A stretch of 64,000 nucleotides of DNA, taken from the NCBI GenBank assembly GCA_029550965.1, contig JAKPGJ010000054.1:42181-106180 (forward strand). The letters run 5' to 3'. Under the pieces are notes generated by a model. The model was not told where the DNA came from. It did no database searches and saw nothing but the letters and a program-made list of their open reading frames with translations. This DNA is from Bacillota bacterium. Lineage in GTDB: Bacteria; Bacillota; Clostridia; Oscillospirales; CAG-382. A program made the position numbers and the translations under genes. Shown here piece after piece: positions 21,415 through 53,071 of this stretch (position 1 is the stretch's first letter; each line of letters opens with the position of its first letter).

Positions 21415-21443
21415 CCAAAAGCGGGCGGAAAAATCCGCCCCGC
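21415..21443 (-). terminator. Rho-independent terminator between glyA and the HAD gene
   Basis: The minus strand reads GCGGGGCGGA-UUUU-UCCGCCCGC followed by UUUUGG, and lies immediately upstream of the HAD RBS. Confidence 0.75.
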
Positions 21444-21499
21444 AGATTCGCTTTTTTGTGTTATGAGCGCACAGCAATCGCTCATAATACTTCTTGCTT

Positions 21500-21644
21500 C
21501 ATCTCTTATCTTTTATCTCTTACCTTTTATCTCTTATCTTTTATCTCTTACCTTTTATCTCTTATCTCTTATCTCTTACCTTTTATCTCTTATCTCTTAT
21601 CTCTTACCTTTTATCTTTTTTATCTCTTACCTTTTACTTCTTCC
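21500..21644 (-). repeat. Tandem heptad array, about 20 x RTAARAG on the sense (minus) strand
   Basis: The plus strand reads a 14-mer ATCTCTTAYCTYTT about 10 times. The sense strand reads GTAAGAG ATAAGAG ATAAAAG and so on. The array starts on the first base after the glyA TAG stop. Confidence 0.95.
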
Positions 21645-22886
21645 CTAATCATTGTATATCGGATGGCTGTCGCACATTTTCTTGACTTCGGAAAGAATGT
21701 ATTCTTTGCTGTTCTCGAAATCCACAACCGCAAGTTTGATCAAGCGCGCGATCTTCACCATATCCTCTTCCTTGAATCCTCTTGAGGTGACGGCGGGCGT
21801 GCCTAACCGCAAGCCGCTGGTGACGAACGGGCTCTGCGGGTCGTTCGGAATGGTGTTTTTGTTCGCGGTGATGTGAACCTCGTCCAGCCTTTTCTCAAGC
21901 TCTTTGCCGGTGATGTTGAAGTTCCGCAAATCCAGCAGCATCAAGTGGTTGTCGGTGCCGCCCGATACCAGTTTGAAGCCCTCCGTGACGAGCGCGTTGG
22001 CGAGCGCCTGCGCGTTCCGGATAATCTGCTTCTGGTACTCCTTGAACTCGTCGGTCAGCGCTTCGCCGAGCGCGACGGCTTTCGCGGCGATGATGTGCAT
22101 CAGCGGACCGCCCTGCGTGCCGGGGAATACGGCCTTGTCGATCTTCGGACCCAGCTCGGCTTTGCATAAAATCAGACCGCCTCTGGGACCTCTGAGGGTT
22201 TTGTGCGTGGTGGTCGTGACAACGTCCGCGTAGGGAACCGGGCTTTCGTGCAGGCCGGCCGCGACCAGACCCGCGATGTGCGCCATATCCACCATCAGGT
22301 ACGCGCCTACTTCGTCCGCGATCTCGCGGCAGCGCTTGAAGTCGATGGCCCTTGAATACGCGCTCGCGCCGACCAGGATCAGTTTCGGCTTGCATTCGCG
22401 CGCGGTCTGAAGCATTTTATCGTAATCAATACGCTGGGTATCGTCGCTAACTCCGTAGGGAACGATGTTGAAGTATTTGCCGGATATGTTAACGGGAGAA
22501 CCGTGCGACAGATGTCCGCCGTGCTGAAGGTTCATCCCCATAACGGTATCGCCCGGATTGAGAAGCGCAAAGAATACGGCAAGGTTTGCCTGTGCTCCGC
22601 TGTGCGGCTGAACGTTTGCGTGCTCCGCGCCAAACAGTTTTTTCGCTCTTTCGATCGCGATGTTTTCAATAATGTCCACATACTGGCATCCGCCGTAATA
22701 CCGCTTGCCGGGGTATCCTTCCGCGTATTTGTTGGTCAGAATGGTTCCTGCGGCAAGAAGCACTGCTTCGGATACGATGTTCTCGCTGGCGATCAGCTCG
22801 ATATTATCGCGTTGACGCTTCAGCTCCAGCTCACAGGCTTCGGCAACTTCCTTGTCGTATTTCTTCAGCTCTTCAATCGATCTCAT
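21645..22886 (-). CDS. glyA: Serine hydroxymethyltransferase
   Basis: 413 aa with the motifs ELIASEN, YYGGC and the PLP-lysine region [14 protein letters not shown]. Confidence 0.95.
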
Positions 22887-24081: not shown

Positions 24082-24142
24082 AATATCCCCTCCGATATCT
24101 GCGGTGTATCGGCGTTATGTTTTCCTTTTATACTTATTCTTA

Positions 24143-25555
24143 TTATTCGTTGTCGTTCTTTAAAATCTGCTTCGCCATGTGAATGCCCATCACAGACGCC
24201 ATCATCAGACCTCTGGTCCAGCCGCTCGAATCGCCGAGACAATGCAAACCCTTAACGCTGGTGTTTAGATTTTTGTCCATCTTGACGCGGTTGCTGTAAA
24301 ATTTCAGCTCCGGCGAATAGAGCAGCGTCTCGTAGCTGGCAAAGCCCGGTACGACGATATCCATCGCTTTTATGAAATTGATGATGTTCGTCATCGCCCG
24401 GTACGGCATCGCCGCGGTAATGTCGCCCGCGACCGCGTCGGGCAATGTCGGTTTTACGTTGGAAAAATTCAGCTCCTTCTGCCAGGTGCGCTTTCCGTCA
24501 AGAATGTCGCCGAAACGCTGCACAAGGATATGTCCGTCGCCAAGCATGTTCGTCAGCTCGCCGACCTTTTGCGCATAGGCGATCGGCTGATTGAAAGGCA
24601 CGCTGAAGTTGTGCGAGCAGAGGATGGCGAGGTTCGTATTCGGGGATTTAATCTCTTTATACGAATGTCCGTTTACAACGGCGAGGTCGTTGTCGTAGTT
24701 CTCCTGCGAAACAAAGCCGCCCGGATTCTGACAGAAGGTGCGCACCTTGTTCTTGAACGGCTTCGGGTATCCGACCAGCTTGGACTCATAGAGCACGTCG
24801 TTGATATACTCCATGACCTCGTTTCTGACCTCGACGCGCACGCCGATATCGACGGTTCCCGGCTGATGGAAAATGTTGTGCAGAGAGCAGATGTGCTCCA
24901 GCCACTCCGCGCCCCTTCTGCCGGTCGCAACCACGATACTCTTTCCGTAAATCGGGATTTCGACGTCCGGGTGCTTGACGTCGTGGGTGATGACGCCGAC
25001 GCACACTTCGTTTTCGATAATCAGATTGCTGCATTCGCGCTCGAATACCAGCTCGACCCCGTTGTCCGCAAGATAATTCTGTATCGAAAGATACAAATCA
25101 TGCGCTTTTTCGGTTCCAAGATGGCGTATCGGGCAGTCAACGAGCTTCAGCCCCGCCTGAATCGCCTTCGCGCGGATGACGCGGACCTTCTCCTCGTTGC
25201 CGACGCCCTCGACGCGCTCGTCCGCGCCGAACTCAAGATAAATCTTGTCGGTGTAGTTGATAAGCTCCTGCGCGTAATCCGCGCCGATCAGCTCGGGCAG
25301 CTCTCCGCCGACCTCGTAGCTGAGCGAGAGCTTGCCGTCCGAGAACGCGCCGGCGCCGGAAAATCCGGTCGTGATATGGCAGAACGGCTTGCAGTTTACG
25401 CACTTTCCGACCTGCGACTTCGGGCACCTGCGCTTGCCGAGCGGCTGCCCTTTTTCGATGATAATGATTTTTTTATTACTTTTTTGACGCACCAGCTCCA
25501 GCGCGGTGAATATGCCCGCCGGGCCTGCTCCTACTATAACAACATCGTATTTCAT
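24143..25555 (-). CDS. FAD-dependent oxidoreductase (COG2509-type)
   Basis: 470 aa with an N-terminal dinucleotide-binding motif (YDVVIVGAGPAGIFTALEL). Confidence 0.75.
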   Translation of the reverse strand: MKYDVVIVGAGPAGIFTALELVRQKSNKKIIIIEKGQPLGKRRCPKSQVGKCVNCKPFCHITTGFSGAGAFSDGKLSLSYEVGGELPELIGADYAQELINYTDKIYLEFGADERVEGVGNEEKVRVIRAKAIQAGLKLVDCPIRHLGTEKAHDLYLSIQNYLADNGVELVFERECSNLIIENEVCVGVITHDVKHPDVEIPIYGKSIVVATGRRGAEWLEHICSLHNIFHQPGTVDIGVRVEVRNEVMEYINDVLYESKLVGYPKPFKNKVRTFCQNPGGFVSQENYDNDLAVVNGHSYKEIKSPNTNLAILCSHNFSVPFNQPIAYAQKVGELTNMLGDGHILVQRFGDILDGKRTWQKELNFSNVKPTLPDAVAGDITAAMPYRAMTNIINFIKAMDIVVPGFASYETLLYSPELKFYSNRVKMDKNLNTSVKGLHCLGDSSGWTRGLMMASVMGIHMAKQILKNDNE

Positions 25556-35568: not shown

Positions 35569-36725
35569 TGTTCGATTACCTCCGATAAAATAGCGACGCC
35601 CTTCTTCAAAACGTCAAAGGGGATATTCAGCGCGGGCAGCAGCCGAACCTTATCCTTCGCGGTCAGCACAAGGACGCCTTTCTTGATACATTCGTTCGCC
35701 ACTTCTTTCGGGTCCTTTGCGGTCTTTATGCCGAGCATCAGTCCCATCCCCGCGACTTGGGTCACATTCTTTAAAGCAGAAAGGGTAGTTTTTAAATATT
35801 CGCTTTTTTTGTTTACTTCCGCGAAGAGTTCGTCGGTCAGCCTTTCGATAATGCTGATTGCGCCGGCGGCGCAGATCGGGTTGCCGCCGAAGGTGGAACC
35901 GTGCGTTCCGGGCGCCAAAACCTCCGCGGTTTTCTCGTTAAACAGCGTACAGCCGATCGGAAGCCCGCCGCCCAGTCCTTTCGCGGTCGTGACGATGTCC
36001 GGCTCGATGCCGTAATGCTCGTAGCAGAAGAGTTTTCCGGTTCTGCCGTTACCGGTCTGCACTTCGTCGATGATGAAGAGAATGTCTTTTTCTTTGCACA
36101 TCTTTGCAAGGTTTGCGACATAGTCTTTTTCAAGTACGTTGATGCCGCCCTCGCCCTGTATCAGCTCGATCATCAAAGCGGCGCAGTCGTCGCTCAGCTT
36201 GGATGCGGTGTCTTCGTAATTGTTCGCTTCCGCGTACGCGAATCCTTCGGTGAACGGTCCGAAATGCTTGTGGAAGCCGTCCTGTCCGGTCGCGGAAAGC
36301 GTGGTGATGGTTCTGCCGTGGAAGCTGTTTTTCAGCGTGACGATGCGGCTTCTGCCTTCTCCGTATTTGTCGGCGGAATACTTCCTTGCCGCCTTAATCG
36401 CGCATTCGTTGGCTTCGGCGCCGGAGTTGCTGAAGAAAACCTTTTTAAAATGCGTCCGCGCGCAGAGCAGCCGGGCAAGTCTCGCTTGCGGAAGGCTGTA
36501 ATACAGGTTGCTGGTATGCGCGATTTGTCCAAGCTGCGCCGTAACCGCTTTGATCCATTCCTCGTCGCAGGCGCCGAAGGCGTTCACGGCGATGCCGCTG
36601 CCCAAATCAATGTATTCCTTTCCGTCGATATCGTAAAGCAGGCTTCCCCTGCCGCGCGCAATCGCGACCGGAAACCGCGCGTACGATGGCGCGATATTCT
36701 GACTTAGTTCGTCCAATATGTTCAT
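35565..36725 (-). CDS. argD: Acetylornithine aminotransferase
   Basis: 386 aa class-III aminotransferase (FIIDEVQTGNGRTG, TTAKGLGGG) in an arg operon context. It overlaps argF by 4 nt. Confidence 0.9.
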   Translation of the reverse strand: MNILDELSQNIAPSYARFPVAIARGRGSLLYDIDGKEYIDLGSGIAVNAFGACDEEWIKAVTAQLGQIAHTSNLYYSLPQARLARLLCARTHFKKVFFSNSGAEANECAIKAARKYSADKYGEGRSRIVTLKNSFHGRTITTLSATGQDGFHKHFGPFTEGFAYAEANNYEDTASKLSDDCAALMIELIQGEGGINVLEKDYVANLAKMCKEKDILFIIDEVQTGNGRTGKLFCYEHYGIEPDIVTTAKGLGGGLPIGCTLFNEKTAEVLAPGTHGSTFGGNPICAAGAISIIERLTDELFAEVNKKSEYLKTTLSALKNVTQVAGMGLMLGIKTAKDPKEVANECIKKGVLVLTAKDKVRLLPALNIPFDVLKKGVAILSEVIEQ

Positions 36726-36772
36726 GCCGCTCTGCCTTTCAAAATAGATTTTTCGGACTTATTTGCCCCGAA

Positions 36773-36842
36773 CCTTTATCTCTTACCTTTTACCTCTTAC
36801 TTCTTACCTTTTCTCTCTTACTTCTTACCTCTTACTTCTTAC
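36773..36842 (-). repeat. Tandem heptad array, 10 x GTAAGAR/RTAARAG on the sense (minus) strand
   Basis: The sense strand reads GTAAGAA GTAAGAG GTAAGAA GTAAGAG AGAAAAG GTAAGAA GTAAGAG GTAAAAG GTAAGAG ATAAAGG, starting on the first base after the argB TAG stop. It is the same family as 21500-21644. Confidence 0.95.
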
Positions 36843-37697
36843 CTATATAAACATCGTTCCAATGCCTTCGTCGGTCAGCATTTCGATCAGAATGGAGTGA
36901 GGAACTCTGCCGTCGATGACGAACACCTTTTTCACGCCGCGTCTGACCGCTTCGACGCAGCACTCGACTTTGGGAATCATGCCGCCGGAGATGACGCCGC
37001 TGTTCATCAGCGCAGGCACTTCGTCAACGCGGATAACCCGTATCAGCGAGTTCTCGTCGTCCATGTCGCGCAGAATCCCGCGGATGTCGGTCAACGTAAT
37101 CAGGCTCTCGGCTTTGAGCGCTGCGGCGATGCCCGCGGCGGCGGTGTCGGCGTTGATATTGTAAACGTTGTCCTCGTTGTCATAGCCGACCGACGAAATA
37201 ACCGGGATATACCCTTTGTCCAGCAGGTCGATGATCGGCTGCGTGTTGACTTCGGTTATCTCGCCGACAAATCCCAACCGTTCGTCCAGCTTCTTCGCCT
37301 TTATCATATGCCCGTCGATGCCCGAAAGCCCGATCGCTTTGCCGCCCAGATTCTGAATCAGCCCGACGAGGTTCTTGTTGATTTTTCCGGCAAGCACCAT
37401 CTGCACGATCTCGGCGGTCTCCTTATCGGTGACGCGCAGACCGTCGATGAACTCGGTCTTTTTGTTGATTTTGCTCAGCATTTCGGTGATTTCGGGCCCG
37501 CCTCCGTGCACCAGAACCACCCGCACGCCGATGAGCGAGAGGAGAACCACGTCCCGCATGACGGCTTTTTTTAAGTCCTCGTTAATCATCGCGTTGCCGC
37601 CGTATTTTACGACGACGGTTTTGTTGTAATATTTCTGTATATACGGCAGCGCGCTGTTCAGCACCTCTGCTTTTTGCGCGTTTGTCATGCTGTCCAT
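36843..37697 (-). CDS. argB: Acetylglutamate kinase
   Basis: 284 aa amino-acid kinase fold (VVKYGGNAM, VLVHGGGP) in an arg operon context. Confidence 0.92.
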   Translation of the reverse strand: MDSMTNAQKAEVLNSALPYIQKYYNKTVVVKYGGNAMINEDLKKAVMRDVVLLSLIGVRVVLVHGGGPEITEMLSKINKKTEFIDGLRVTDKETAEIVQMVLAGKINKNLVGLIQNLGGKAIGLSGIDGHMIKAKKLDERLGFVGEITEVNTQPIIDLLDKGYIPVISSVGYDNEDNVYNINADTAAAGIAAALKAESLITLTDIRGILRDMDDENSLIRVIRVDEVPALMNSGVISGGMIPKVECCVEAVRRGVKKVFVIDGRVPHSILIEMLTDEGIGTMFI

Positions 37698-37739
37698 TTT
37701 ACTACACCCTGTATTTCCTTTTTGTATTTTTTTATTTTT

Positions 37740-39955: not shown

Positions 39956-39983
39956 ATTATACACATAAAATATCTATTGTCAA
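39956..39983 (-). promoter_or_regulatory. Promoter of the arg operon
   Basis: The minus strand reads TTGACA - 16 nt - TATAAT. AT-rich sequence lies upstream. Confidence 0.6.
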
Positions 39984-40007
39984 GTATTTATACAAATATT
40001 TATTTAT

Positions 40008-40025
40008 CAATTTATTATTATGCAT
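40008..40025 (-). promoter_or_regulatory. Weak candidate ARG box (ArgR/AhrC operator)
   Basis: The minus strand reads ATGCATAATAATAAATTG. Against the TGAAT-W4-ATTCA type consensus this is an imperfect match (3 mismatches in the two arms). Position is just upstream of the -35. Confidence 0.25.
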
Positions 40026-40045
40026 TTATTTCCGCGTCTGCTCAC

Positions 40046-40095: not shown

Positions 40096-42210
40096 CTAAT
40101 ATTCTTTTGCGTCCATCATATTATCCACTATTATCTTGTTTATTATATCTTCATACGTCAGGTTGGAAAGCTTGAAGTACCCGACAAAATGATCGGCTCC
40201 TTCTATATAAATATCATGAGCGCCGTATCGTATTTCAATATAAATATAGGAGTCGTTCGGCCCTATCCGCTCGTCGACCAGATTGTCAAGCAAGAACGGA
40301 ATCGTTTCATCATTCAAATCAATTCTTACCTGTACGAATGTCCCGTTTGGCTGATTCAAAACAATTTCCGCTGTAACATTATACTTTTTATAATCTTCCG
40401 ATTTCAGCAGCGATAGAATCCTTTCTCGATCGGACCTGCCCGTGTTGTAGGTGTACTCGAAAAACTTTTCATAGCTTTTTGGCGTCAAATTCGGTAAAAT
40501 CGGAACGGAAATATAGATTTCATTGTTATTGATAACCGTACGGTAAGAAATATGCGCCGGCGAATGATAGCTTTTCAATTGGCTCAGCCAAACATCGGCA
40601 TCAACGGACGCCAGTTCGTCTTGTATTGCCTTGAATACTTCATACGCGGCTTTGTCGGTATGCTTTTCATTGCTATAACCAAAAGTTATTGTATTCTTGA
40701 CGGGTTCCGGCAAGGTAAGCGCCCGTTTTTGAAATTCCGGATTAGAAATTAAGGAATCAATGATTATTTTAAAGTCAGCAGACGGGAATACGACTTTTCT
40801 GTAATAAGCGCCGCTTTTTGTACGAATTTTCACGCAAGCGCGGATATATTGCGCCGACGCGAAATCATCGTCAACGATGGAACAGCTCTCATAATTTCGG
40901 GCATTGGAATATTTGTAATAAGTGTCGCTTGCGTTTTTGGATCTTGTAGCCTTCAGAGCGTCCACGTTTTCTTTCAGGTTTTTCGCGACAATTTGCTTTA
41001 CGCGTTCATCCGTCAATTTTATATCTGAACTTTGGTATTTATAGTAGTTTTCCAAACTGAACCTTGGCATTTCTTCCAACTGCAGCGAAACGGAAGTTAT
41101 TTCGTCCGCCGTCGGCGTAAAGTTCAGATGCGCTTGATAGATGCCGAGCATTCCGCAATATATCAAACCGTTCAAAACCGCAACAATCCCCAGCGCCGGA
41201 ACCGCTTTTAACAGGTTCTTCCATTTTTTCGTGGTGATTAGCTCATACAGGAAGTAAACAAAAACTGCTATGAAATAACCGAATATGATTAAGAAAACTT
41301 CATCGCTTTCGAAGGTGCTTACGTCAAGAATGAGACATAAAACGATAATGCAAATCATCATGGTTACCGTGATTCTATAAACCGCCTGCATGATGCGGTT
41401 CGGCGAAGATTGCCCGGCGGTTTCGCTTTTTCTTTTTTTGAACAAACAGCACGCCGCGGCTGCATATGCGAGCGAAAGGACTATTGTATAAATAAACGCG
41501 GCGGGGTCAGCCAAAATGTCGTTAAACCAGTTAAATATACCGAGTGATTCGAAAAGCAGATAAGTTAGAAGATTGTATTTCCCTTCCAGCAGAAAGCCGA
41601 TATGCGTATAGGACATCATGGGTAAAAGCAGCGTGATTTCATATGTAATCATGGCGATGATAAATCTCGGCAGAAACATAATCAAAACCGCAACAATGAT
41701 GCCGTTGATGGTTGTTCCCGTAATGGCGCAGGCAATCGCCGTACAAGCCGCGGCGAGGAAGGCTGCGGCAAGGCAGTTGAGCGTATACATAAGCCAGGAT
41801 GAAAACACTACGGTGAAATGTCCGCTGAAAATCGAATGCAATCCGAACGAAACAAGCGAAGTTGCCGCCGCTATGATAAAAAGCCAGGTGAGAACGGAAG
41901 CATAAAAGCTCAAAAAGACGCATTCGCGCGTATAAGGCATCGCGTGGTAAAAATCTGCCGTGTTCCGTTTGTTCAGAAAGCCGAACAGATACAGCGTCAA
42001 GATGAAGGCGACAATACATAATCCGAGTAATACCGGATGCATATCCATGCCGGTAACGATTTCGATCGAATACCCTCTGTCTATGACTTCCGTAAGCGGA
42101 ACCGCAACCGCCGCTATCATAAAAATGACAAAGAAAACGATACCGGGGGTTTTTAACTGTTTTATCCCCTCGCGGTACAAGCCGAAATCGAACAGTTTTC
42201 TGTTTTTCAT
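40096..42210 (-). CDS. ABC-2-type permease-like membrane protein with a large C-terminal non-membrane domain
   Basis: About 704 aa. The first approx 370 aa contain many TM segments and the last approx 330 aa are soluble. ATG at 42210 lies behind GAGGTG (alternative GTG at 42219). The gene is visibly AT-richer than its neighbours. Confidence 0.7.
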   Translation of the reverse strand: MKNRKLFDFGLYREGIKQLKTPGIVFFVIFMIAAVAVPLTEVIDRGYSIEIVTGMDMHPVLLGLCIVAFILTLYLFGFLNKRNTADFYHAMPYTRECVFLSFYASVLTWLFIIAAATSLVSFGLHSIFSGHFTVVFSSWLMYTLNCLAAAFLAAACTAIACAITGTTINGIIVAVLIMFLPRFIIAMITYEITLLLPMMSYTHIGFLLEGKYNLLTYLLFESLGIFNWFNDILADPAAFIYTIVLSLAYAAAACCLFKKRKSETAGQSSPNRIMQAVYRITVTMMICIIVLCLILDVSTFESDEVFLIIFGYFIAVFVYFLYELITTKKWKNLLKAVPALGIVAVLNGLIYCGMLGIYQAHLNFTPTADEITSVSLQLEEMPRFSLENYYKYQSSDIKLTDERVKQIVAKNLKENVDALKATRSKNASDTYYKYSNARNYESCSIVDDDFASAQYIRACVKIRTKSGAYYRKVVFPSADFKIIIDSLISNPEFQKRALTLPEPVKNTITFGYSNEKHTDKAAYEVFKAIQDELASVDADVWLSQLKSYHSPAHISYRTVINNNEIYISVPILPNLTPKSYEKFFEYTYNTGRSDRERILSLLKSEDYKKYNVTAEIVLNQPNGTFVQVRIDLNDETIPFLLDNLVDERIGPNDSYIYIEIRYGAHDIYIEGADHFVGYFKLSNLTYEDIINKIIVDNMMDAKEY

Positions 42211-42222
42211 CTCCGTCACCTC

Positions 42223-51746: not shown

Positions 51747-51787
51747 ACAAAAAAAGACTGACGCGGGTTGAACGCTGTCAGTCTTTT
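51747..51787 (-). terminator. Terminator after the DUF4097 gene
   Basis: Stem aagactgac/gtcagtctt flanked by an A-run and a T-run. Confidence 0.65.
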
Positions 51788-51800
51788 ACTTTTATCTATG

Positions 51801-52913
51801 CTACTTTTGTTTTATGCTTATGTTGCCGCTGGTCGAGGAAAGGTTGAAAACCGCGCTTCCGTCCCCGTAAACCGCTTTGTTGTCGGTGATTGTTACCGGC
51901 AGTTCGCTGTTGAATCTGCCGCTGGATACATGATAGTACGCGGTAAAGCCTTTGTCGCCGGGAACCGTCAGCCGTATCTGGCCGCTCGTGGTGTACGCGT
52001 CCACGCTGCTCGGGCAAACGCCGAATTCGAGCGTAACGTCGCCGGAGGTCGAGCCGCATTTGACTTCTTCTGCGTCAACCGCCAGAATGATCGAACCGCT
52101 GGTAGCGCCGCAGTTGACTTTGCTGAACTGACCCGCCGCCTTGATGGTTCCGGAAACGCTTCCCGCATCCAGCTTATTTGCATTGCCGGCAAAACCAATG
52201 CTTCCGCTGGTCGTGCTCAGCGCCGCCGTCTGCGCCGTTCCGGCGAAGGCGATGGAGCCCGAAACGCTTTGAAGATTCACGCGCTGCGCGTTGCCGGCCA
52301 CTTTTATAGAACCGCTGCTGCTCTTGCAGTAGATGCCGCTGATTGCGCCCGCGCCGTCGGGCAGGTTTTCCGCAGACAAACGGATGTCGCCGGAAGCGCT
52401 TTCCAGTTTGAATTCTTCCGCGGCGATTTCCTCTATCAGCATATCCGCGGATACGGCGTCAACCCTGCATTCTTTCAGCGCGCCCATGCTCTCTGGAATC
52501 CGCACGGTCAGGCGCTTTTCTTTGTTCAGTTCCCAATACCTTGCTTTTTTCGGCGAACAGAACTTGATATAAAGCACGCCGTCCTTGACCAGATAGCACA
52601 GCTTCTCGTCCTCGTTTAATTCTTCGGATTTCGTTTCCGAAACGGAAATCATCTGTCCGCTATGCTTTTCGATCGTAACGCGGTCGGCTATCCAGTTGAC
52701 GTCTATTTTTTCGATTCCCTGCGCGGAAAGCTCCGCGTTCCCTTTGCTGTAAAGGTCGGAATCCGGATAGGTGTAAATGTCGAACGTCCGAGCATTGAAA
52801 TTAAAATGAAACCGAAACATCGGAAACCCTCCCGTCAAGCCAATAATCCACGCCGCGATGCCCACCACCGCGACGACCGCCAGTAGAACAATAAGGACAA
52901 CATACCGTTTCAT
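51801..52913 (-). CDS. DUF4097 (putative adhesin, beta-helical repeat) membrane-anchored protein
   Basis: ATG at 52913 (MKRYVVLIVLL...) behind AAAGG. Repeated (S/T)SG(S/D/T)I strands occur throughout. The ORF-track start at 53006 lies upstream of the predicted promoter. Confidence 0.75.
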   Translation of the reverse strand: MKRYVVLIVLLAVVAVVGIAAWIIGLTGGFPMFRFHFNFNARTFDIYTYPDSDLYSKGNAELSAQGIEKIDVNWIADRVTIEKHSGQMISVSETKSEELNEDEKLCYLVKDGVLYIKFCSPKKARYWELNKEKRLTVRIPESMGALKECRVDAVSADMLIEEIAAEEFKLESASGDIRLSAENLPDGAGAISGIYCKSSSGSIKVAGNAQRVNLQSVSGSIAFAGTAQTAALSTTSGSIGFAGNANKLDAGSVSGTIKAAGQFSKVNCGATSGSIILAVDAEEVKCGSTSGDVTLEFGVCPSSVDAYTTSGQIRLTVPGDKGFTAYYHVSSGRFNSELPVTITDNKAVYGDGSAVFNLSSTSGNISIKQK

Positions 52914-52955
52914 AGCAACTAACCTTTTTAATTTAATTGAAGTATTCTGCTTTTC

Positions 52956-52984
52956 ACTATAACAAATTATATATTCTCTGTCAA
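52956..52984 (-). promoter_or_regulatory. Promoter of the DUF4097 gene
   Basis: The minus strand reads TTGACA - 17 nt - TATAGT. Confidence 0.55.
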
Positions 52985-53071
52985 GCAAAGCTGTAAAAAA
53001 GGACAAAGCGGCGCAGAATACCGCTTTGTCCCGCCTTATTCGTATTTATCAAAAGCGCGCGTATCCGCTTT

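Follow-up and report, generated by a model that had tools for sequence, protein, structure and literature searches.

A heptanucleotide array of variable copy number between argB and argD in an uncultured Clostridia lineage

The argB-argD junction and its array

The 64,000-nucleotide stretch of DNA analyzed here (the window) derives from an uncultured Bacillota/Clostridia lineage that exact-protein look-ups find in many metagenomes; samples with this organism include ERZ27245379, ERZ795101, ERZ773290, and ERZ651804 and JGI 3300010273, 3300025605, and 3300010285. Its minus strand carries an arginine biosynthesis (arg) operon in which a tandem array of purine-rich heptanucleotides (heptads) lies between the argB stop codon and the ribosome-binding site (RBS) of argD. 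NCBIfam confirms argC, argJ, argB, argD, argF, and carA, as well as glyA, the gene that precedes a second such array. The gaps in the arg operon measure 24, 42, 117, −4, 21, and −8 nt, and the 117-nt gap is the sole large one, as a preliminary description of the locus had stated. That description also reported 10 heptads over 70 nt on the sense strand from position +1 after the argB stop, and this account is accurate: argB (minus strand, 36843-37697) ends in TAG at 36845-36843 and is followed by GTAAGAA GTAAGAG GTAAGAA GTAAGAG AGAAAAG GTAAGAA GTAAGAG GTAAAAG GTAAGAG ATAAAGG. The following features, all on the minus strand, define the junction and its transcription unit:

36773..36842, minus strand: arg heptad array, 10 units, 70 nt, consensus RTAARAG, starting at +1 after the argB stop
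36843..36845, minus strand: argB stop codon TAG, the array's first base being the next base
36808..36828, minus strand: 21-nt higher-order unit GTAAGAA GTAAGAG AGAAAAG, one copy in the window (period 21 in Tandem Repeats Finder, TRF)
36752..36772, minus strand: weak stem-loop UUCGG-N11-CCGAA 3′ of the array, with an A/G single-nucleotide polymorphism (SNP) at 36758 in the population
36726..36740, minus strand: argD ribosome-binding region GAAAGGCAGAGCGGC, the sole part of the spacer conserved in relatives
39956..39983, minus strand: sigma-70-type consensus promoter TTGACA-16-TATAAT upstream of argC, which defines the array-containing transcription unit

An A/U-rich stretch separates the stem-loop from the argD RBS (GAAAGGCAGAG at 36740-30), which serves an ATG at 36725 (minus strand). 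TRF resolves the array into 10.6 copies of period 7 with a period-21 higher order. The two-heptad pattern RTAARAGRTAARAG, with at most one mismatch allowed, has 26 matches in the window against 0.17 expected from shuffles, all of them on the minus strand and confined to the argB-argD junction and the 3′ side of glyA. The claim that the arg array is a second copy of a glyA heptad family stands. Related elements elsewhere in the window are as follows:

21501..21644, minus strand: glyA array of about 20 heptads (ATAAGAG / ATAAAAG / GTAAGAG), 144 nt, zero C, directly after the glyA TAG stop at 21645-21647 (TRF: 21501-21636, 18 copies)
21417..21490, minus strand: two hairpins 3′ of the glyA array, as read from the sequence
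24105-24145, minus strand: proto-array TAA-TAAGAA-TAAGTA-TAAAAGG, directly after the stop of the FAD-protein gene 24143-25555
51770-51803, minus strand: proto-array TAG-CATAG-ATAAAAG-TAAAAGA, directly after the stop of the gene 51801-53006

The geometry of the two junctions had been described as matching. Both arrays do begin at +1 after a TAG stop on the sense strand, but the glyA array does not lie between cistrons of one operon; it occupies a 3′ untranslated region (UTR) upstream of an intrinsic-terminator-like hairpin, the second of the two listed (GCGGGGCGGA-TTTTT-CCGCCCGC-TTTT), which is conserved in a 91% relative. Alignment of the flanks of the two arrays is no better than that of shuffles, and the heptads are the only feature in common. 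Because the flanks are unrelated, a mobile element or miniature inverted-repeat transposable element with defined ends is ruled out. Within 64 kb the repeat is dispersed, with two arrays and proto-arrays after two other stops. At two Clostridia loci (L081 and L011), arrays stand directly behind homologs of other window genes; in the window these genes, or others, show only proto-arrays past their stops. In the Eubacteriales homolog of the FAD-protein gene (L081), the stop is followed 12 nt later by an array of 5 heptads.

The arg array is composed of 37 A, 24 G, 9 T, and 0 C. Both arrays present UAA in three frames, about every 21 nt, and contain no ATG, GTG, or TTG start codon on either strand, and the antisense strand of both is open in all frames. 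The RNA of the argB-argD spacer has a minimum free energy of −8.1 kcal/mol (z = +0.62 against dinucleotide shuffles), with the array wholly unpaired. The hairpin previously noted after the array is present, but at −6.9 kcal/mol (z = −1.3) it has little stability, equaled by 24 of 200 shuffles; the natural G/A loop SNP weakens it further to −5.5 kcal/mol, and it is not conserved in relatives. A terminator scan of the gap found no site. On these grounds a terminator or attenuator after the arg array is ruled out. A known RNA family is likewise ruled out by the lack of an Rfam match: at the gathering threshold Rfam 15 finds only RNase P and one tRNA in the window, and 36600-36950 has no match even at E ≤ 10.

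The purine-rich heptads resemble Shine-Dalgarno (SD) sequences, and their pairing was computed with a generic Bacillota anti-SD, the organism's own 16S lying outside the window. Two AAGAGGU sites in the arg array form anti-SD duplexes of −7.2 kcal/mol each. The argD RBS reaches −8.9 kcal/mol, and most real RBSs of the operon lie at −9 to −12 kcal/mol, those of argB and carA being exceptions. No site in the glyA array pairs with the anti-SD at or below −5 kcal/mol. The STAB-SD of Gram-positive mRNAs, reportedly a purine-rich, SD-like sequence unused for initiation, shares these traits with the arg array; it is however a single strong SD near the 5′ end, whereas pairing in the arg array is weak and in the glyA array absent. 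Tandem SD or STAB-SD function as a property of the family is thus ruled out.

The strict 7-nt periodicity and invariant UAA core might also suggest a periodic platform for an oligomeric RNA-binding protein of the HutP or TRAP kind, or for a nucleoid or other DNA-binding protein that reads a 7-nt register. TRAP and HutP sites are repeated GAG or UAG triplets in the register of the protein, and the HutP register is 7 nt. Triplet sites of this type are ruled out here, the invariant core being UAA instead of UAG or GAG and the sole UAG being the stop codon. More broadly, the copy number is free to range from 1 to 22, the motif recurs across phyla and phages without a common partner, and no candidate regulator lies nearby. 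We regard a platform of any such kind as very improbable.

The arg promoter lies 3 kb upstream of the array, which itself follows the argB stop and precedes the argD RBS; a phase-variation contingency locus, in which the repeat would fall inside an open reading frame (ORF) or between the −35 and −10 elements, is rejected. Overlapping and preceding the argC promoter (39956-40030) are AT-rich direct 12-mers (CAAATATTTATA twice, plus strand), which may be a candidate ArgR/AhrC operator. Just upstream of the operon, a 707-aa ORF (40096-42219, minus strand) without an NCBIfam match occupies a segment of low GC content (42%), with a terminator-like hairpin (AACAGC…GCTGTTTTTG) after it.

Copy number among strains and relatives

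An allele series was assembled from exact-protein look-ups of ArgB, using contigs from short-read assemblies whose ArgB is at least 99% identical. Four alleles were found at the argB-argD gap:

117 nt, 10 heptads: the window, L001, and L002
138 nt, 13 heptads: L003, L141, and L142
159 nt, 16 heptads: L004 and L144
201 nt, 22 heptads: L145

The number of times that the 21-nt unit GTAAGAA-GTAAGAG-AGAAAAG is repeated (1, 2, 3, or 5) is all that distinguishes them. At glyA, three full contigs from the window species have the same 144-nt array.

Such a series could in principle be manufactured by short-read assemblers, and the heptad arrays are systematic assembly breakers in this lineage. Assemblies break inside them in L125, L136, L137, L143, and L266, and the 96% GlyA variant is found on six contigs, every one of which ends within the array; moreover, two contig pairs with identical flanks differ in copy number. 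Even so, the array occurs with identical flanks in more than 10 independent samples processed with MEGAHIT, SPAdes, and JGI pipelines, the 10- and 13-heptad alleles were each found twice on one flanking-SNP background in independent samples with independent assemblers, and sister species carry shorter arrays that any assembler can resolve. It is therefore highly implausible that the array or its variation is an assembly artefact.

The same junction in relatives forms a second, phylogenetic series. At 94% ArgB identity (L125) the TAG stop is followed by at least 5 heptads, where the contig ends. At 90% (L126, GCA_030154545.1), TAG is followed by a single GTAAGAA heptad, an inserted ORF, and then argD. 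At 89% (L140), a TAA stop precedes 4 heptads and 81 nt of unrelated sequence. At 84% (L128 and L129) the junction is an ordinary 17-nt stop/SD arrangement, TAG-AAAGAGAGGTAGCGGAA-ATG, with 0 heptads, and 0 heptads are also found in the 21-nt and 15-nt gaps of L130-132 (81%) and L127. Array-free relatives, with ArgB identities of at most 84%, have ordinary stop/SD junctions of 15-24 nt. A scan of metagenomes with the 3′ end of argB as anchor found only two distant relatives, both without the array. Among the relatives compared, conservation in the spacer is confined to the argD RBS block. At glyA, 4 or more heptads are present in a 96% relative, whose contigs all end there, and the 91% relative has TAA and 4 heptads followed by the conserved terminator.

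Close relatives therefore have shorter arrays or none at both argB-argD and glyA, as is characteristic of variable repeats at orthologous sites. Since sister species have short arrays at both loci, both junctions had a short array before the species split, and both arrays have expanded in the window lineage. The preliminary description had named absence of the array from orthologous operons of close relatives as evidence against a regulatory role; such absence was found in part, with 0-1 heptads in some relatives and 4-5 in others. An effect specific to TAG, such as stop reassignment or UAG read-through, is ruled out by the arrays that follow TAA in relatives at both loci.

Several further observations concern these relatives. 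The ORF inserted in L126 (2880-3299) encodes a GNAT acetyltransferase of 139 aa. In L140, a hairpin at 2390-2425 (GGTACGAAC-TGT-GTTCTTACC) follows the 4-heptad array; its stability of −7.3 kcal/mol is not significant, and its 3′ arm is the reverse complement of a heptad and could in principle pair with any array unit. The ArgB homolog of L127 (2001-3131) is called at 376 aa versus 284; it is extended by 9 aa at the C-terminus and, at the N-terminus, by a long segment that reaches argJ and is probably a start-codon mis-call. The argJ-argB spacer is likewise in flux: in the window (37698-37739, minus strand) it is 42 nt long, A-rich, and contains (TAAAAAAA)x3, while in the 89-94% relatives it spans 91-149 nt with hairpins such as GGAAAAACCTTCGGTTTTTCC (L125 1888-2000, L126 1852-2000, L140 1410-1500).

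Stop-adjacent arrays across phyla and phages

How far the motif extends was assessed by scanning genomes, one from each species, for runs of three TAARAGR heptads (at least 120 loci; the window's own genome is not among the matches listed) and viral contigs for TAARAGR arrays (at least 120 loci). The counts in this section and the next refer to the matches listed, and the positional statistics use crude gene calls. Hosts include Bacteroidota, Cyanobacteria, Acidobacteriota, Proteobacteria, and Bacillota. The arrays are almost never inside ORFs, are commoner in convergent than in divergent intergenic regions (33 vs. 6, p = 1.4e-5), and lie at a median of 7-9 nt from the stop of the sense gene. 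Between co-directional genes the medians are 7 nt to the upstream stop and 101 nt to the downstream start, and viral arrays are likewise stop-adjacent (median 2 nt). The adjacent stop is usually TAA. Co-directional pairs show no significant strand preference (29 vs. 19 in genomes, 28 vs. 19 in viruses); the robust signal is thus stop-adjacency together with avoidance of divergent regions, not absolute orientation. The modal array has 4-5 heptads (typically 4-6), placing the window arrays in the upper tail. A related phage family (IMG/VR contigs L151, L152, L176, L179, L195, L203, and L204) has two same-strand arrays of 3-4 heptads about 1.48 kb apart, in an "antisense-upstream-of-start" configuration.

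This placement lends itself to an explanation in which 3-4 heptads constitute a post-stop, all-frame terminator cassette that releases read-through or frameshifted ribosomes before a terminator hairpin or the next RBS, with selection keeping the short form and the long arrays being neutral slippage overshoot. UAA appears in all three frames within 21 nt, the arrays lie at or a few nt from the stop on the sense strand in both genomes and phages, and in at least 16 cases the gene stop is itself the first TAA of the array. Eight such ORFs were tested with Pfam and are bona fide genes, mostly matched to the profile end. The modal size, and the four-heptad arrays retained at both junctions in sister species, also accord with a short selected form. 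On the other hand, a random AT-rich 3′ UTR already supplies stops quickly, heptamers of another family that contain no stop codon (GGGAATC) follow the same positional rule (PMC4692102), and about 40% of co-directional cases are in the opposite orientation (19/48 and 19/47). We consider the cassette an unlikely explanation.

The composition of the arrays suggests a different, strand-asymmetric role in transcription. The cytosine-free sense RNA (no C in the 70 nt of the arg array or the 144 nt of the glyA array) would be Rho-proof, while the antisense RNA would form an ideal Rho utilization (rut) site ending antisense or convergent read-through; as a related idea, R-loops formed just past the stop by ribosome-free, purine-rich RNA would make the repeat unstable as well. 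The antisense transcript, at 34% C and 0% G over 70-150 nt, does have the composition expected of a rut site, which should span at least 70 nt and be C-rich, G-poor, and unstructured; the sense RNA is unstructured, and arrays are enriched in convergent regions, where they hug the sense gene in 28 of 33. Yet everything downstream of the arg array is co-directional, with no obvious antisense source, and the co-directional orientation bias is weak. These points make a strand-asymmetric element quite unlikely.

Origin, effect, and known counterparts

In our judgment, the arg element is probably a hypervariable heptanucleotide variable-number tandem repeat (VNTR), driven by slippage and acting at most as a passive spacer that uncouples the translation of argB and argD. 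It would have originated at a native argB-stop/argD-SD junction bearing a short purine-rich seed, of the kind seen as TAG-GTAAGAA in the 90% relative and TAG-AAAGAGAGGTA in the 84% relative. A short array of about 4-5 heptads would have been kept in sister species, and in the window species slipped-strand mispairing or unequal recombination between 21-nt units would have raised the number to 10-22 copies. Such growth may be tolerated because the sense transcript is inert, with UAA in every frame within 21 nt, no starts, no structure, and no cytosines for Rho loading. Any effect on the operon would be passive, a coupled junction of 15-24 nt becoming an untranslated spacer of 117-201 nt, with argD then initiated de novo at its own conserved RBS. 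With such a spacer in place of a tight junction, termination-reinitiation coupling between argB and argD would therefore be abolished; we argue for this uncoupling because relatives have 15-24 nt junctions and argD here keeps its own conserved RBS.

The preliminary description had proposed that the array uncouples or tunes expression of argD-argF-carAB. Uncoupling is a reasonable consequence of the spacer, whereas a dedicated arg tuning device is unsupported. In its strongest form, the tuning idea would make the array a cis-regulatory spacer whose copy number sets the ratio of argCJB to argD-argF-carAB, strain differences being the tuning knob. It could act through translational uncoupling, through holding of 30S subunits on SD-like heptads (as a standby site, or by STAB-SD-like shielding of the downstream fragment that processing leaves), or through single-stranded entry of RNase Y/E. 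The lengthened junction, a fully single-stranded array with two AAGAGGU sites of −7.2 kcal/mol, and a copy number that changes in discrete steps are all in keeping with this idea. However, the SD-like sites are weaker than the operon RBSs except those of argB and carA and lack any counterpart at or below −5 kcal/mol in the glyA array, which is followed by a terminator and not by a cistron. Relatives with 81-90% ArgB identity manage with no array or a single heptad, near-identical strains have 10, 13, 16, or 22 copies, the hairpin is neither significant nor conserved, and like arrays stand behind unrelated genes not only in related Clostridia but also in phages and in many phyla, Bacteroidota among them. 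Tuning by copy number accordingly strikes us as doubtful, although it is the rival we would take most seriously.

Several observations nonetheless weigh against reading the array as a neutral, slippage-driven VNTR. Adjacency to a sense-strand stop codon does not follow from slippage by itself: where regions are convergent, the preference for the sense gene is strong (p = 7e-5), and the gene stop may itself belong to the array, as in the 16 or more cases above. The variant positions of both window arrays are all purines, with 0 C in 214 nt, which hints at compositional constraint. Arrays of about 4 heptads have been kept at both junctions across roughly 10% protein divergence, a persistence that could reflect selection rather than mutational equilibrium. 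Lastly, two contig pairs with zero SNPs in 2.6 kb of flanks have unequal heptad copy numbers, and copy-number change without flanking SNPs means either hypermutability or some miscounting by assemblers. The precision of stop-adjacency, the purine-only variation, and the persistent four-heptad arrays keep a functional reading alive, at a low but appreciable probability. One speculative version, to which we also assign only a small chance, would have RTAARAG arrays, and perhaps all purine-rich heptamer arrays, be a selected, cross-phylum, strand-specific insulator placed after stops: a core of about 3-4 heptads at the stop would provide all-frame ribosome release, a Rho-proof sense strand, and a rut-like antisense strand, and copy number would also tune intercistronic uncoupling (argCJB|DF-carAB).

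On the VNTR reading, the array has little consequence for the arg operon itself, being most likely a tolerated spacer, and it should not be annotated as a riboswitch, attenuator, or arginine-responsive element. The junction offers a natural time series, from an ordinary stop/SD arrangement through one heptad and four or five to 10-22, with a parallel at glyA. It also bears on the general question of why heptanucleotides are over-represented in bacterial intergenic DNA and placed at sense-strand stops. In practical terms, the arrays break short-read assemblies, and they would suit strain typing in this uncultured Clostridia lineage as markers of the kind used in multilocus VNTR analysis (MLVA).

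Among known systems, the contingency simple sequence repeats (SSRs) of Haemophilus and Neisseria share slippage-driven gain and loss of whole units and heterogeneity within populations. They are, however, homogeneous repeats inside ORFs or between promoter elements that mediate on/off switching, whereas the window array, which is degenerate, separates a stop codon from the RBS that follows it in a housekeeping biosynthetic operon. The short tandemly repeated repetitive (STRR) heptanucleotides of cyanobacteria reportedly form dispersed tandem families in non-coding DNA, as the window arrays do, and differ from them in unit sequence and phylum.

The closest parallel in position is with the G-rich heptamers of Xanthomonas (GGGAATC) and Nostoc (GGGGAYT), which usually have about four units, vary extensively in length between close relatives, lie preferentially within 50 bp of a stop on the sense strand, and are rarer between divergent ORFs (Rehm et al., 2015; PMC4692102). 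That positional rule is reproduced by RTAARAG arrays at the genome and viral loci scanned here. The two sets are alike in being intergenic, tandem, genome-dispersed, and length-variable, with purines on one strand and about 4 units, and one array of the Nostoc/Xanthomonas family lies inside an operon (pecE-pecF; PMC4692102). In contrast, the window arrays have another unit sequence with UAA in each heptad, reside in an uncultured Clostridia host, and contain no G-tracts, so that the G-quadruplex formation stressed for the Xanthomonas/Nostoc family is inapplicable to them. The same paper relays an observation of Mrazek (2007) that bacteria have an excess of heptamer SSRs, for which polymerase slippage is a possible cause (PMC4692102).

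A second parallel is provided by the TAACTGA direct repeats of Beggiatoaceae, Cyanobacteria, and Bacteroidetes, which have stops in all forward frames, form no RNA structure, differ by 7-nt indels between strains, are missing from close relatives with short intergenic regions, and terminate contigs (MacGregor, 2015; PMC4679880). The window arrays share the all-frame stops in forward orientation, and hence can overlap gene ends by only a few nt, as well as the lack of predicted RNA structure, the strain indels, the repeat-free close relatives, and the assembly breaks. Unlike them, the Beggiatoa sets have an unrelated unit, number 2-6 copies, and lie mostly just upstream of start codons, whereas those in the window directly adjoin the stop codon upstream of them, with copy numbers as high as 10-22. 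A literature search found no paper on the RTAARAG unit or on such arrays in Firmicutes. The window arrays share every defining feature tested of the intergenic heptanucleotide SSR/VNTR (STRR-like) class; their behavior is already known from other heptamer families.

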